The translations under genes and the position numbers were made by a program. From NCBI GenBank assembly GCA_963829055.1, contig CAWHHI010000004.1:64001-128000 (forward strand): a DNA stretch of 64,000 nucleotides, written 5' to 3'. Shown here one piece after another: positions 32,012 to 37,860 of this stretch (position 1 is the first letter of the stretch; each line of letters opens with the position of its first letter). The notes beneath the pieces were generated by a model that did no database searches, was not told where the DNA came from, and worked only from the letters and a program-made list of their open reading frames with translations. This stretch comes from an uncultured Gemmatimonadaceae bacterium. GTDB taxonomy: Bacteria > Gemmatimonadota > Gemmatimonadetes > Gemmatimonadales > Gemmatimonadaceae.

Positions 32012-32305
32012 GTGAGCAACTACCTCTTCCGTCTGTTCATTGCGGGTGATTCCCTACGATCGAGGCAGGCAGTCGCGAACCTTCGGCGCCTGGGCGAGGA
32101 ACGACTGTCCGGCCGTTTTCAGCTCACGGTGATCGACGTCACCGCCGATCCCGCGAGCGCCGAGGCGGCCCGCGTGCTCACGACGCCCACGCTGCTCAAG
32201 GAAGCCCCCGCACCCCCTCGTCGGGTGACGGGCGATCTGACGGACGCCGGGCAGGTGATCGTCGCGCTCGGGCTCGAAGGCGATCTCAACCTCGGAATCG
32301 AATGA
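32012..32305 (+). CDS. kaiB: Circadian clock protein KaiB family
   Basis: LFIAG.SLRSRQA..NL, VIDV, TPTL, PPRRVTGDL. Confidence 0.92.
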   Translation: MSNYLFRLFIAGDSLRSRQAVANLRRLGEERLSGRFQLTVIDVTADPASAEAARVLTTPTLLKEAPAPPRRVTGDLTDAGQVIVALGLEGDLNLGIE

Positions 32306-33897
32306 CCGATACCTTCGACCGCGGCAGCGGCGCGGTGGACAAGATCGCGACCGGCATTCCTGGCTTCGACATCATTGCGGACGGCGGCCTGCCGCGCGGG
32401 CGAGCGACGCTCGTCGCCGGAACGGCTGGCAGCGCGAAGACGATCTTCTCCGCGCACTTCCTCGCCGCCGGCATCACGATGTTCGATGAGGGCGGTGTCT
32501 TCGTCACGTTCGAGGACACCCCCGAGGATATCCGCCTCAACGTGCGCGCGTTCGGCTGGGACATCGAAGCATGGGAGCAGGCCGGCAAGTGGGCGTTCGT
32601 GGACGTGTCGCCCGAACCGGAAGGTCCGCCACCTGTCGTGGGCGGATTCGATCTCGGCGCCCTGCTCGCGCGCATCGAGCACGCCGCGAAGCGAGTGAAT
32701 GCCCGCCGCATCGTGCTCGACTCCATGAGCGCGTTGTTCATGACGCTCGACGACCGCGCGTTGCTGCGCACCGAGCTCTATCGCATCTCGCTGGCGCTCA
32801 AGCGTGAGGGAATGACCGTCGTGTTCACGAGCGAGCGCATCGCGGACTACGGCGACATCACGCGGTTCGGCATCGAGGAGTTCGTCGCCGACAACGTGCT
32901 CCTGCTGCGCAACATCCTCGTGGATGAGAAGCGCCGGCGCACGATCGAGATCCTCAAGTTTCGCGGCGCGTCGCACCAGCGCGGTGAAGTTCCGTTCACG
33001 ATCACGGGCGAAGGGATCGTCGTCATCGCGCTCACGGCGCAGGAGCTGACGCAGGGATCGACGACCGTTCGTATCACGTCCGGCGTCGCCGAGCTCGATC
33101 GCATGTGCAACGGCGGATTCTTCCGCGACTCGATCGTGCTCGTGAGCGGCGCGACGGGAACGGGGAAGACGCTGCTCGTCACGCAATTCATTTCCGGCGG
33201 GTTCACGACGAACGAGCGGTGCCTGCTGTTCGCGTTCGAGGAGAGTCGCGACCAACTGATTCGCAACGCGCTCGCGTGGGGCATCGACTTCGCTCGCATG
33301 GAGCGCGAGGGCCTGCTCCGCATCGTGAATCAGTATCCGCACGCGATGCCCATGGAAGATCATCTCGTCCGCATGGGCGAGATCATCGAAGAATTTCAGC
33401 CGCAGCGCGTGGCGGTGGACAGTCTCTCCGCGCTCGAGCGCGTGTTCACGCTGCGCGCGTTCCGCGAATTCGTGATCAGCCTCACATCGACGCTGAAGCG
33501 CGGCGGCATCGCGGGTCTGTTCACGTCGACGACCGCCTCGCTGTTAGGCGGTGGGTCCATTACCGAAAAGCACATCTCGACGCTGACGGACTCGATCATC
33601 CTGCTGCGCTACGTCGAGATGTTCGGCGAGATGCTCAGAAGCATCACGGTGCTCAAGATGCGCGGCTCGCTTCACGACACGCGGTTGCGCGAGTTCACGA
33701 TCGATGGCGCCGGGATGCACATCGGCGAGCCATTCCGCCGAGTGAGCGGCATTCTTTCCGGCGTGCACACGTTCAGCGATGGTGATGCCCACGGCGATGC
33801 CGACGGCGCTGATGACGACGGCGACAACGGGAACCACGGGCACGAAGGGCACGAGTCCGCGTCGTCGCGTTCGGGGGAGGCACCGCGCGGTGTGTGA
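32302..33897 (+). CDS. kaiC: Circadian clock protein KaiC (double RecA-like domain)
   Basis: EEFVADNV, GATGTGKT, FEES, SITEKHISTLTD phosphosites, KMRGS, ILSG. Confidence 0.95.
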   Translation: MTDTFDRGSGAVDKIATGIPGFDIIADGGLPRGRATLVAGTAGSAKTIFSAHFLAAGITMFDEGGVFVTFEDTPEDIRLNVRAFGWDIEAWEQAGKWAFVDVSPEPEGPPPVVGGFDLGALLARIEHAAKRVNARRIVLDSMSALFMTLDDRALLRTELYRISLALKREGMTVVFTSERIADYGDITRFGIEEFVADNVLLLRNILVDEKRRRTIEILKFRGASHQRGEVPFTITGEGIVVIALTAQELTQGSTTVRITSGVAELDRMCNGGFFRDSIVLVSGATGTGKTLLVTQFISGGFTTNERCLLFAFEESRDQLIRNALAWGIDFARMEREGLLRIVNQYPHAMPMEDHLVRMGEIIEEFQPQRVAVDSLSALERVFTLRAFREFVISLTSTLKRGGIAGLFTSTTASLLGGGSITEKHISTLTDSIILLRYVEMFGEMLRSITVLKMRGSLHDTRLREFTIDGAGMHIGEPFRRVSGILSGVHTFSDGDAHGDADGADDDGDNGNHGHEGHESASSRSGEAPRGV

Positions 33898-35549
33898 ACA
33901 TGTCTGAACACAGCGCCAGCGAATCACCAGTGGAACGGGCGTCGGATCGAACCCGTTTGCGAGTGATCGTCGAACGGATGGCCGACGGCATCATCATCGC
34001 GGACCGCGAAGGTGTGATTCAGTTCGCCAATCCCGCCGCGGAGACGCTGTTCGGCCGACCCGCGGATGACCTCGTGGGCGAGCACTTCGGATTTCCGATT
34101 GTCCGCGAGGACACGAGCGCGATCGAGGTCGTGCGCCCCGGCGGTGAGGTGTTGCACGCGGAGCTTCGCGTGGCGGACATTGAGTGGGAGAGTGAGTCGT
34201 CGTTCCTCATCTCGCTGCGCGACGTCACCGATCGCAAACGCGCGGAGGAGCAGGCGCGTCAACTCCAGCAGGAGCAGGCGGCGCGCACGGAGGCCGAAGC
34301 GGCGAGCCAGGCGAAGTCGGAATTTCTCGCGGTCATGTCGCACGAGCTTCGCACGCCGCTCAACGCGGTCCTCGGCTACACGGACCTGTTGCAGCTTGGC
34401 ATCGCGGGCTCACTCAGCGACGAGCAGCGGCAGCAGTTGCGTCGCATCTCGGCGAGTGGGCGGCATCTGTTGTCGCTCGTGAACGAGGTGCTCGATCTCG
34501 CGCGCATTGAATCGGGGCGCCTCAATGTCGAGCGGCGTCCGATTCGTGCCGCAGACGCCGCCGATGCCGCGGTGGTGATGATTCAGCCACAAGCGGAAGC
34601 TCGCGGACTGACTATCGAGCGCGTCGACGGTGGGATGGAGCCGCTCTGTATCGGTGATCCGGATCGCGTGCGTCAGATTCTCGTGAACCTGCTCGGCAAC
34701 GCGGTGAAGTTCACGCCAGCCGCGGGAAGCGTCATCGTGGACATTGGCGTCGCGGACGCACCGGAGAGCGCCGCTCGTGTGCGTGGCGACGGATCGTGGG
34801 TGTACTTCCGCGTGACCGACACCGGTCCTGGCATTGCCGCCGATCAGCTCGAGTTGATCTTCGCGCCGTTCGTGCAGGCGCAGGGCGGGCGCACGCGCGG
34901 AAAGGACGGCACGGGCCTGGGTCTCACGATCAGTCGTCGTCTCGCGCGGCTGATGAATGGCGACGTCACCGTGCGCAGCAAGCTCGGAGATGGTGCGGTG
35001 TTCACGTTGTGGCTTCCCGAGGCGACCGATGGTGCGCCGCACGGGAGTGACGTCGAGTTGCCGCTGCGCGGACGAGAGCCCGCGGTGCAGGGGCTTGCCG
35101 ACATTGGCGAAGCGTTGATGCGCGATCTGGAGCCGGTGCTCGATGGCTTCGTCGCGCGACTGCGTGAAGCGCCGGGTGTGCCGGGCGCGGAATCGCTGCA
35201 TTTCTCCCAGCTCGCGGATCACGTCCCGAGTTTGATCGCCGACATGGCGGAGACACTCGTGATCATCGAGGAGTCGCGCGGGGAGCCGTCGTCGATCATT
35301 GCGGACGGCACGGCGATTCGTCGGATGATCTCCGACCGCCACGGTGTGCAGCGTGCGCGGCTCGGCTGGACGGTGGACGCGCTCCGTCGCGAGCACGCGC
35401 TGCTGCGCGCTGAAGTCGAGGGCGCGATTCAGCGCCGTTTTCTCGGTGAGCGCGAGGGTCGCATTGCGGAGGCGATTCGGGTGATCGATCAGTTGGTGAT
35501 GGATGCCGAAGCATGCGCCGTACGCGCGCTCGAACGAGAAAGCGGATAG
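33894..35549 (+). CDS. PAS histidine kinase with extra C-terminal helical domain
   Basis: MSHELRTPLN, NAVKFT, DTGPGI, GTGLGL; GTGA overlap with kaiC. Confidence 0.9.
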   Translation: MNMSEHSASESPVERASDRTRLRVIVERMADGIIIADREGVIQFANPAAETLFGRPADDLVGEHFGFPIVREDTSAIEVVRPGGEVLHAELRVADIEWESESSFLISLRDVTDRKRAEEQARQLQQEQAARTEAEAASQAKSEFLAVMSHELRTPLNAVLGYTDLLQLGIAGSLSDEQRQQLRRISASGRHLLSLVNEVLDLARIESGRLNVERRPIRAADAADAAVVMIQPQAEARGLTIERVDGGMEPLCIGDPDRVRQILVNLLGNAVKFTPAAGSVIVDIGVADAPESAARVRGDGSWVYFRVTDTGPGIAADQLELIFAPFVQAQGGRTRGKDGTGLGLTISRRLARLMNGDVTVRSKLGDGAVFTLWLPEATDGAPHGSDVELPLRGREPAVQGLADIGEALMRDLEPVLDGFVARLREAPGVPGAESLHFSQLADHVPSLIADMAETLVIIEESRGEPSSIIADGTAIRRMISDRHGVQRARLGWTVDALRREHALLRAEVEGAIQRRFLGEREGRIAEAIRVIDQLVMDAEACAVRALERESG

Positions 35550-35557
35550 TCGAACGG

Positions 35558-35676
35558 TGTCATCCCGAGCGTCAGCGAGCGTCAGCGAGGGATCTCCTGT
35601 GATGTCATCGTGGCGGGTTAGCTACGATGACTTTCGAGAAGATCCCTCGCTGCCGCTCGCTGACGCTCGGGATGAC
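35558..35676. repeat. GTCATCCCGAG element copy 7
   Basis: TIRs with a duplicated GAGCGTCAGC unit mirrored in both arms. Confidence 0.9.
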
Positions 35677-35932
35677 GAACGCTGATGGCTTTCGCTGTGA
35701 CTCGTTCGTGTTCTCGTGGGTCTAGCTGACGACGCGATGCTCGAACGCATTGTCGATCCGTCGCGGCGGAACGAATGGAACCAGGTCAGGCGAATCGCGG
35801 ACGGCGTTGCAGGACGCAACAGTAGTGTCGCTCTTCAGCAACGCTCACGACCGTTGTCCGCGTTAGGAGCAATGGTGCGTTTGAGAGGGAAGAGTCTGGG
35901 CCGCACCGATACTTCAGCATGTCGAACGCTTG

Positions 35933-35948
35933 CGGCACGGTTATCGCT
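35933..35948 (+). promoter_or_regulatory. Putative sigma-54 (-24/-12) promoter
   Basis: CGGCACGGTTATCGCT, GG-N10-GC, upstream of tRNA-like RNA and rtcB. Confidence 0.55.
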
Positions 35949-36047
35949 TTAATACGGAAGTGAGCTGGACGGTTGGGGTCGCGCGTGCCAGACGACGCGT
36001 GATGGGCGGGGATCCGACGCGTATGGGCTTTTGCCGCGTGTCGTCTG

Positions 36048-36210
36048 GGGACCGTAGTTCAACGAGAACGCGCCGACGCCGCAGGATTCCTTTGCCCGAC
36101 GAGGGCCGATGAACGCGGGGGGCCGGCGGCGAGATGCGGGTGACGTATATCGTGCCGACTGCATAGCGGTGAATGCGTGAGGCGCGGTGAGCGGAGTCCC
36201 GTCGGTCCTC
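36048..36210 (+). ncRNA. tRNA-like RNA with enlarged anticodon and T loops
   Basis: Acceptor GGGACCG/CGGTCCT, TA, D stem GTTC/GAAC, anticodon stem CGCCG/CGGCG, AGAT, T stem GCGGG/CCCGT in canonical order. Confidence 0.75.
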
Positions 36211-36227
36211 GGTAGCCCTCCTGTTTC

Positions 36228-36392
36228 GGGAATCGGGAATAGGGAATCGGGAATGGTGAAAGACCTCGGGACGCTTCGTGCGTCTCGAGGTCTTTGCCAT
36301 CCCGTCCACGTGACGGATATGCGGCCGTTCGCGACACGCGGGTTCGCCGGTTGCCCGATTCCCGATTCCCGATTCCCCATTCCCCATTCTCG
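36228..36392. repeat. Inverted heptamer arms (GGGAATC)n/(CCCGATT)n around hairpin core
   Basis: Seen directly; right arm abuts rtcB ATG. Confidence 0.88.
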
Positions 36393-37620
36393 ATGAAGAT
36401 CTTCGGCAATCACGATGCGGCGACCATCGCGCAGCTGGAGGATGTCGCCTCACGCGCCGCGGCCGCGGCGCTCATGGCGGACGGGCACGTCGGGTACATC
36501 ATGCCCATTGGCGGAGTGGCTGCGTACCACGAGCAGGTGTCCGTCGTCGGCGTCGGGTTCGACATCGCGTGCGGCAACGCGGCGATTCGCACCGACCTCA
36601 CGCTCTCGCAGCTCGGCGATACCCCCGACGAAGTTGGCCGCACGCTGAGCGGAATTGCCGACGACATTGCCGCCACGGTCAGTTTCGGCATCGGGCGGAA
36701 GAATCGCGCGGACGACGCGCCGGTGGATCATCCGCTGTTCACGGACGCCGCGTGGGACGCCGTGCCGCACAAGCATCGCGCTGCCTTACGCGACAAGGCC
36801 CGCGGCCAGTTGGGGACCGTCGGCAGCGGCAATCACTATGTCGATGTGTTCGCGGATGAGACCGGGACGATCTGGGTCGGCGTGCACTTCGGGAGTCGCG
36901 GCTTCGGCCACACGGTCGCGTCGAGCTTCATTGCTGTCAGCCAGGGCCAGGAGTGGGGAGCGCGTGCGCCCGAGCGCGAAGTGCTGCTCGACCTTCACGG
37001 CACCGATCGGTCACGACTACTGGCACCTCATGAACCTCGCCGGTCGTTATGCATACGCCGGCCGAGAGTGGGTCGCGCGGAAAGTGGTCGAGATCCTCGG
37101 CGCGAACGAGGTGGAGCTCGTCCACAACCATCACAACTTCGCGTGGCGCGAGTCGCACGGTGGGGACGACGTGATCGTCGTGCGGAAGGGGGCGACCCCC
37201 GCGTTCCCCGATCAGCGTGGCTTCATTGGCGGGTCGATGGGCGACGACGCGGTGATCGTCCGCGGCGTGTCGCCTAACGCCGTTTCACCCGATGTCGCGG
37301 AATCCCAGCGGGCCGCGCTGTACTCGACCGTGCACGGCGCCGGCCGCGTGATGTCGCGCACACAGGCTGCGGGGAAGCGGAATCGGAAGACGGGCGCGGT
37401 GATCAAGCCCGGTCAGGTGTCGCCCGAGATGATGCAGGAGTGGGTGCAGCGAAAGGGTGTGATCCTCCGCGGCGGCGGGCTCGACGAAAGTCCTCACGCG
37501 TATCGACGCCTCCCGGAGGTGCTGGCGGCGCAGGAGGGAACGGTCGAGGTCCTCCATACGCTGCGGCCGCTGATCGTCGTGATGGCGGGGGAGAATGAGT
37601 TTGATCCGTACAAAGACTGA
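36393..37620 (+). CDS. rtcB: RNA 2',3'-cyclic phosphate/5'-OH ligase RtcB (frameshift near 36997)
   Basis: DIACG, GTVGSGNHY, HFGSRG, HNHHN, RKGAT, GSMG, STVHGAGR, DESPHAYR. Confidence 0.93.
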
Positions 37621-37860
37621 CGGCCGGCGGCCGGCAGGCCGGAGGAAGGAGGCCTGAGGAAGGAGGCGAGGAAGGAGGAGGGCGGACGGCGGAGGGCGGA
37701 GAAAAGCCTGTCATCCCGAGGAGCGGCGGCGACGAGGGACCTTCTGTGATGTCATCGTGGCGAGGCCGGCTACGATGATATCACGCAAGGTCCCTCGCTG
37801 ACGCTCGGGATGACAACGCTTTTCCGCCCTCCGCCCTCCGCCGTCCGCCTTCCGCCTTCC
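37621..37860. repeat. GTCATCCCGAG element copy 8 nested in inverted heptamer arms
   Basis: Core 37709-37815 flanked by (AGGCGGA)-like and (TCCGCCT)-like tracts. Confidence 0.9.

Follow-up and report, generated by a model that had tools for sequence, protein, structure and literature searches.

A conserved tRNA-shaped RNA upstream of rtcB in Gemmatimonadaceae with a predicted Rsr-binding helix at the anticodon position

Introduction

What is a tRNA-shaped RNA that lacks both an anticodon and a CCA end, directly upstream of an RNA ligase gene? The question is raised by the window, a 64,000-nt stretch of DNA from an uncultured Gemmatimonadaceae bacterium (genome G000), in which a first-pass annotation had placed a cloverleaf with two large insertions at 36048..36210, 5' of rtcB. 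The element was proposed to be a distinct tRNA mimic, set apart from Y RNAs, and an RtcB substrate that is possibly spliced or circularised. By the analysis below this RNA belongs to neither the tRNA nor the YrlA family and most likely works like a Y RNA.

Results

Extent and fold of the RNA

Comparison with homologues bounded the window RNA at about 36015-36212, or ~200 nt. The features of the RNA and of the adjoining gene are as follows.

36015..36043, + strand: 5' leader hairpin (8 bp, AUG bulge, 3 bp, 4-nt loop); three of eight outer-stem pairs with double changes
36045..36054, + strand: extended acceptor-like helix, 5' strand (10 bp with 36203-36212); 90.8% paired, five of ten pairs double-changed
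36057..36069, + strand: D arm, 4 bp with a 5-nt loop lacking G18G19; C-G to U-A change in 14 of 58
36071..36131, + strand: long helix at the anticodon position, with no anticodon; seven of eight basal pairs with double changes
36090..36109, + strand: predicted Rsr/Ro60-binding helix, CUUUGCCC (36090-36097), a 5-nt loop and GGGCCGA (36103-36109)
36136..36202, + strand: T arm, YrlA-type stem GCGGG/CCCGY and a 57-nt loop with a clade-specific hairpin
36203..36212, + strand: extended acceptor helix, 3' strand, not followed by CCA
36226..36388, no strand: arrays of an inverted GGGAAT(C/A) repeat that separate the RNA from rtcB; they lie outside the RNA and recur genome-wide
36393..37620, + strand: rtcB RNA ligase, with PF01139 on both of the halves into which a single extra base near 36999 divides it

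The MFE fold of the window RNA contained every stem of the first-pass annotation, and all of the cloverleaf stems were present and formed where they had been placed. While the cloverleaf itself was real, the true unit was larger (36015-36212), as the 5' hairpin had been missed. The acceptor stem, described as 7 bp, extended to 10 bp in full (36045-54/36203-12), and the stems within what had been called a 51-nt anticodon loop turned out to be one uninterrupted, irregular helix whose basal stem has 8 bp. The reported absence of an encoded CCA (nothing of the kind follows 36212) and of an anticodon, whose position is occupied by the long helix, was borne out. The MFE fold was not unusually stable (z -1.05, with 32 of 200 shuffles as stable), and support for the structure therefore comes from the homologues.

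No Rfam family reached its gathering score on the window RNA, the tRNA and YrlA models gave no match there even at E<=10, and ARAGORN made no call. The Rfam and ARAGORN checks suggested at first pass thus found nothing on it. Matches of miRNA models were rejected as repeat hairpins. No sigma-70 promoter or terminator consensus was found within 35550-36420.

Conservation and covariation of class A

We refer to the class of the window RNA, found in Gemmatimonadaceae, as class A. A leader-based search pattern returned at least 120 metagenome matches, and the family name rests on leader matches in four GTDB loci titled Gemmatimonadaceae. Class A was present in 19 of 351 family genomes, a tally that takes in one unpublished genome (G372), as do the other family-genome tallies below. 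In two metagenome copies 199 nt of the window RNA were identical. A phylum-wide model search gave strong matches confined to its own family (3 of 151 genomes); the weak matches were ordinary tRNAs, except for an array of class B RNAs (see below) in G175. No match to the RNA was found in plasmids and phages, and neither the class A nor the class B pattern occurred in viral contigs.

The class A alignment comprised 58 model matches from 57 chosen loci, with the T-insert clade and truncated and duplicate loci excluded and with one match being a class B-like copy. Across it 92.6% of cells were paired and 27 of 51 pairs were changed on both sides, a count reached in 0 of 500 shuffles, while slid controls were 27-46% paired; being model-fitted, the alignment leans towards the model. 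The covariation that the first-pass annotation had named as a check on its stems was thus found, with compensatory changes throughout. The window RNA is a real, conserved tRNA-shaped RNA.

The helix at the anticodon position covaries along its whole length, and its tip is a 4x1 motif (CWWU/C in 67, CAUG/G in 37 and unclassified in 4 of 108 distinct copies). Covariation prefers this 4x1 internal loop to the lone bulged C seen in Y RNAs of animals. The leader hairpin holds the 4x1-type motif once more, as YAUG/G; the core of this hairpin was part of the class A search pattern, so that its invariance among pattern matches is by construction. The elbow of class A was decayed: T loops measured 3-12 nt with a UUCRA T loop in 14 of 58 (T-insert clade excluded), D loops ranged from 5 to 64 nt, and CCA followed the helix in one of 58. 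The T- and D-loop counts were taken from alignment A2.

The Rsr motif and comparison with known RNAs

A Yrn1 homologue in locus L121 (RF01053, 84 bits) carries GGGCCGA at its 5' end and CCUUGCCC at its 3' end, and the window motif equals both strands of the Yrn1 Rsr helix except at one base. Rsr is reported in PMC4201824 to protect Yrn1 bases G7, G8, C9, G11 and A12. The strands of the Rsr helix in D. radiodurans Yrn1 (RF01053) are nearly identical to those of the window RNA; there, however, the helix is built from the 5' and 3' ends, at the acceptor position, whereas in the window RNA it is closed by a loop. The anticodon-position helix therefore looks like a docking site for Rsr (Ro60), as predicted from this match. 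A Ro60/Rsr-type helix with both strands, characteristic of Y RNAs, is thus present by sequence resemblance.

The window RNA also resembles YrlA (RF02553; Chen et al. 2014, PMC4201824), with which it shares D- and T-stem sequences, a Ro motif at the anticodon position and an rsr/rtcB neighborhood. The YrlA T and D stems are described by Chen et al. as nearly invariant (PMC4201824); the window T stem GCGGG/CCCGY fits the YrlA consensus, and so does the D stem with one compensated pair. The two differ in topology. YrlA has T before D, a looped acceptor and a Ro helix made from the two ends of the RNA, while in the window RNA the D arm precedes the T arm, the acceptor ends are open and it is the Ro helix that is looped, i.e. 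normal tRNA order rather than the permuted order with a closed acceptor. YrlA conserves the elbow, which class A has lost. In place of the YrlA 5'-end motif GNCGAAN0-1G, the window RNA has an internal GCCGAUG (36105-36111) that agrees at five of the first six bases. It went unmatched at the YrlA cut-off of 69 bits, and the best score in G000 (27.8 bits) lay elsewhere. As for tRNA (RF00005), the window RNA lacks a 7-nt anticodon loop, a UUCRA T loop, G18G19 and CCA. An intron-containing pre-tRNA is not indicated either, with no spliced product at the low depth available and no splicing endonuclease in the 86% complete genome.

The evidence speaks against the proposed separation from Y RNAs, since the window RNA bears the Rsr-type helix and the YrlA T-stem sequence. 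That separation had rested on domain order and on the lack of Ro60 in the window, and both a paralogue and relatives of the RNA adjoin rsr (see below). The broader description, a distinct tRNA-mimic ncRNA tied to RNA repair, was supported.

A paralogue beside rsr in the same genome

Contig C6 of G000 carries an 85%-identical paralogue of the window RNA that shares its leader, its D arm and its long helix at the anticodon position and has a normal 7-nt T loop. It scores 37.2 bits as a tRNA (RF00005), which points to tRNA ancestry, and shares its array with tRNA-Arg(ACG) and with another tRNA-like RNA, of class B (L002 1204-1332; about 108476-108604 of C6). An intact rsr/Ro60 gene lies about 1.1 kb downstream, adjoining the paralogue and not the window copy. 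The first-pass annotation was thus correct that the window contains no TROVE/Ro60 gene, although the genome does. The G000 Rsr is full length (553 aa), can be aligned with Xenopus, human and Deinococcus Ro60, and retains the His aligned to Ro60 H187, a residue reported to contact Y RNA (PMC4030889; PMC11277228). RtcR was not found in G000 (86% complete).

Two class A copies were observed in five of six other genomes of the genus, or six of seven in all. Three relatives carry a class A RNA, tRNA-Arg, rtcB and rsr in that order on one contig, and for this reason the window copy looks like a product of operon splitting.

Several smaller elements recur in these arrays. The tRNA-Arg(ACG), conserved and with an unusual D loop, accompanies rsr/rtcB arrays (L002 1120-1196; L015, L017, L033-L036, L041) and could be the b7a-tRNA of the literature. 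A motif GGGUCG..G(G/A)UUAUC was observed just 5' of rsr (L002 about 2366-2400; L037, L145, L177, L042), and 11 of 80 class A loci have it downstream; it may be a hairpin Y RNA resembling YrlB/Yrn2. Forty of 84 class A loci carry the motif CGCGACTCCC in the 700 nt upstream (L002 about 1060-1075, L020, L040-L042); in L041 and L042 a complementary GGGAGTCGCG lies further upstream, and the two loci share a terminator-like hairpin. These elements may form a leader RNA or antiterminator of class A/rsr operons. Truncated rsr remnants were seen beside intact class A RNAs in L018 (1972 onward; G045) and L163 (2758-3225).

Genes downstream of class A and co-occurrence with Rsr and RtcB

The first recognised same-strand gene within 1.5 kb was tallied for 118 distinct class A copies. 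RtcB (20) and an EF-Ts-like protein (20) were the most frequent, followed by Rsr (17), a small unknown ORF (11), cytochrome c (8) and a methyltransferase (1), with 12 others and 29 contigs that were too short. Rsr was observed in 8 of 19 class A genomes vs 34 of 351 family genomes overall, and RtcB in 12 of 19 vs 110 of 351, enrichments that are inflated by kinship (four of the eight Rsr-bearing class A genomes belong to one genus). The Ro60 vWA domain was not detected in 11 of the 19 class A genomes, and genus g31 had class A in 5 of 20 genomes and Rsr in 0 of 20 (85-100% complete). Class A was retained at loci that have lost rtcB (L012, L144).

The CAUG/G form (37 of 108 copies) drops the GGGCCGA strand from its usual place, and 27 of the 43 CAUG/G copies in the downstream-gene tally are followed by an EF-Ts paralogue or by a gene for cytochrome c. 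The EF-Ts paralogue is short (160-200 aa) and lies directly 3' of class A in L147, L149, L209, L217, L278 and L281, the last two being in genomes without detectable Rsr. The small ORF (about 102-105 aa, 11 of 118 copies; e.g. L019 1640-1954, L211 1724-2029) has no Pfam match and sometimes precedes rtcB.

Class B: RNAs in tRNA order beside rsr

A second set of RNAs, class B, lies beside rsr in tRNA order with canonical D and T loops. The search used an exact pattern for the 3' half that was derived from Gemmatimonadota, and the resulting 49 GTDB loci are biased accordingly. Forty-four of these were in tRNA order (49 distinct copies), three were permuted and YrlA-type with the class B signature (L095, L104, L127), and two were chance-like (L128, L131, with no D arm upstream and no Rsr). 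Record titles named Gemmatimonadota, Chloroflexota (6), Deinococcus (4), Armatimonadota and Myxococcota, i.e. at least five phyla (L095-L143 among the loci); L102, labelled Enterobacteriaceae and with no Rsr seen, was left out of this count. In 40 of 49 loci, and in 37 of the 44 in tRNA order, a same-strand rsr gene lay no more than 3.5 kb away.

A perfect 7-bp acceptor was observed in 43 of 49 copies, and CCA was encoded in 9. The 3' Ro strand, which lies outside the search pattern, was present in all 49 (shuffle mean 17, maximum 30). In 12 copies (B1) the Ro hairpin lies within the anticodon loop, while 31 copies (B2) keep a separate 7-nt loop 3' of it, with Y32 in 30, U33 in 30, R37 in 29 and 20 different anticodons. 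The modules of class B are those of YrlA, unpermuted. Of 114 classified class A copies, 101 are spaced from G[AC]GG as class B is, and from this spacing and the B1 layout we infer that class A is a derived B1. Together the two classes are apparently an uncatalogued, Y-RNA-like set in normal tRNA order.

Some relatives may already be in the literature. D. radiodurans RNA b, as drawn in PMC4201824 (Fig. S3), has a 7-bp terminal stem, a D-like arm, a long hairpin that holds an internal CCUUGCCC/GGGCCGAA helix, and then a T arm, and we are moderately sure from the figure that it is a class B RNA. It is described there as UV-induced, upstream of rsr and bound by Rsr 'less strongly', and in that account is neither defined as a family nor called a Y RNA; the drawing shows no class A leader, no T-loop insert and no extension of the acceptor. 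The b7a-tRNA of Burroughs and Aravind (2016), compared here by its description, is a tRNA-like RNA predicted close to rtcB and at times to rsr, and is said to resemble authentic tRNA strongly and to be paired with a Band-7 gene. It possibly overlaps with class B; no Band-7 gene was found near either class A copy of G000. The E-loop tRNAs of Mukai et al., as published, look unrelated. A term search of the tables of PMC4201824 gave no Gemmatimonas, Gemmatirosa, Thermomicrobium or Chthonomonas, and no description of a tRNA-order Y RNA family was found in the full texts searched, a coverage that leaves out the reviews likeliest to mention one. There is some chance, if a minor one, that such RNAs have been described before.

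The T-loop insert and RNA libraries

A T loop of 48-59 nt was observed in 23 variants, mostly from one clade. In the 20 that were aligned, 99.2% was paired, with double changes in only 3 of 19 pairs, a count matched by 40 of 500 shuffles and hence weak covariation. Other class A lineages carry different T-loop hairpins (L016, L017), and T-loop sizes across class A run from 3 to about 59 nt. No other copy of the insert was found in the genome, and its origin as a mobile repeat was rejected on that ground. Removing 50 nt gives a 7-nt T loop that occurs naturally in homologue L153, while removal of the anticodon insert leaves no U33 loop.

Of 24 sequencing runs listed, six RNA runs contained 6-12% of the words of 35900-37700, and contigs were compared for three RNA runs and one DNA run. 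RNA run X15 gave a 250-nt contig at 36009-36258, and two contigs from X16 span 35982-36060 and 36031-36202; all three are gap-free and agree with the window at every base. X17 covered 35900-36148 with five differences. The window RNA is thus present in RNA libraries, unspliced, in contigs that give no ends, strand or level and may include DNA carry-over. No splice joint across either insert was seen in the contigs of the three RNA runs, at low depth and in assemblies that drop rare forms. Near-identical RNA contigs cover the window RNA and not rtcB, which is not evidence of rtcB silence. The tRNA splicing endonuclease PF01974 was not found in G000 (86% complete), and 5 of 15 informative T-insert copies had no rtcB downstream.

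With no splice joint seen, no splicing endonuclease found and freely varying loop sizes, the T-loop insert is a clade-specific appendage and not an intron. The transcript and junction check proposed at first pass placed the element in RNA contigs and gave no joint at the low depth available. Gap-free contigs across both inserts speak against a spliced or circularised RtcB substrate; excision of inserts is further disfavored by the spread of T loops (3 to about 59 nt) and D loops (5-64 nt) and the lack of PF01974, and a role as RtcB substrate by the T-insert copies without rtcB.

Discussion

On balance we lean towards the window RNA being a Y-RNA-like scaffold or gate for Rsr in RNA-repair operons, a reading built on its structure, its motif match, its tRNA-order relatives beside rsr and its placement 5' of rtcB or rsr. 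A tRNA scaffold would bear, instead of an anticodon, a hairpin tipped by the bulged helix for Rsr, the bacterial Ro60. The RNA would be co-transcribed with rtcB and would escape RNase P cutting and charging, as the elbow is lost, CCA is absent and the 10-bp acceptor abuts the 5' hairpin. It would then bind Rsr made from the C6 locus and may gate or tether this protein while RNA is repaired and degraded. The insert of 50 nt in the T loop would be a later addition that the RNA tolerates since it has ceased to form an elbow, and may offer a binding site for a new partner. The main caveat is that 11 of 19 class A genomes have no detectable Rsr and that many copies precede the EF-Ts paralogue. Also counting against this reading are the CAUG/G copies without GGGCCGA in its usual place, the preference for a 4x1 loop over a single bulged C, the 'less strongly' bound RNA b of PMC4201824, and the fifth and sixth bases of YrlA GNCGAA, which are not both kept (GCCGAU).

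The varied genes downstream of the 118 copies, with RtcB, EF-Ts-like and Rsr at similar counts, and the persistence of class A in genomes without Rsr would also suit a cis-acting leader derived from a Y RNA, an alternative we consider possible but unlikely. Two 4x1 protein-binding motifs, one in the leader and one in the inner hairpin, would control a downstream stress gene (rtcB, rsr or the EF-Ts paralogue) with Rsr or another protein as ligand, and the decayed elbow, with UUCRA in 14 of 58, agrees with such a role. With RtcR not found in G000 another regulator would be needed. The RNA is, however, often found inside polycistronic tRNA/class B arrays or 0.5-1.1 kb from the gene, it is kept where the locus has lost rtcB (L012, L144), and there is no terminator-like site near the window copy; a weak hint in the same direction is that near-identical RNA contigs lie over the RNA and none over rtcB. 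That class A is instead a decaying class B relic, functionless after operon splitting, is quite improbable. Its lost elbow, variable loops and unremarkable MFE z-score would fit decay, as would the truncated rsr beside the G045 copy, yet covariation largely refutes it: compensatory changes occur throughout, a conserved leader was added, two copies are kept in six of seven genomes of the genus, and the RNA is found with 199 nt identical in two metagenome copies and in RNA libraries. A pre-tRNA-like substrate of RtcB, with inserts excised and religated or the RNA circularised, is highly improbable. It accounts for the position beside rtcB and for the 7-nt T loop left by a 50-nt removal, natural in L153, but not for the absence of a joint in gap-free contigs over both inserts (three RNA runs, low depth), the varying insert sites and sizes, the missing PF01974, the lack of a U33 loop after removal of the anticodon insert, or the covariation along the whole anticodon-position helix.

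The wider tRNA-order set to which the window RNA belongs may help explain how permuted bacterial Y RNAs arose. We tentatively propose, as an idea with a small chance of being right, that tRNA-order Y RNAs are the missing ancestor of YrlA, that some serve as Rsr-bound baits for anticodon nucleases, and that class A is a branch that gave up tRNA mimicry. A Ro-binding hairpin would have been inserted into a tRNA between the D arm and the anticodon arm, or in the anticodon loop, and permuted YrlA would have come from two tandem copies that each lost the outer half. Matches of the YrlA model already span neighboring class B copies, and the published cyanobacterial YrlAs shown in PMC4201824 bear the class B signature GGCCGA..GAGGGUUAUCG. 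The 'V' stem-loop of YrlA, whose loop is frequently CU-NNN-AA in the supplement of PMC4201824, looks like the remnant of an anticodon arm. B2 RNAs with their anticodon-like loops could be the Rsr-bound baits, with RtcB carrying out repair, while class A would have turned into a protein scaffold or regulator with two sites.

Chen et al. (2014) left a group of Ro60-bearing bacteria without YrlA and expected Y RNAs of other shapes there (PMC4201824). Class A and class B RNAs would fill that gap in Gemmatimonadota, Chloroflexota, Deinococcota and others, where they are overlooked by current tools or mislabelled as tRNAs. They would represent a third Y RNA topology and offer a concrete, testable origin for permuted YrlA that would refine the dimeric-tRNA model as published. 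The loop-closed Ro helix also lets one ask whether the Ro60 site works when looped, and the elbow-less class A which part of tRNA mimicry matters for Rsr/RtcB function.

Other features of the window

The extra base in rtcB was absent from the near-identical metagenome copy L200 and from a contig of DNA run X1, and the frameshift is probably strain-specific or a fault of assembly. On C6 a Band-7 gene also appears to be split in two frames, and the two splits suggest indel errors in the assembly. The GGGAAT(C/A) repeats form 70 triple arrays in the genome. A second genome-wide repeat consists of long TCATCCCGAG-bounded palindromes (487 arm matches), which in the window lie at 35560-35675 and 37709-37812. 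Just 5' of the window RNA, a kaiB-kaiC-PAS histidine kinase operon occupies 32012-35549.
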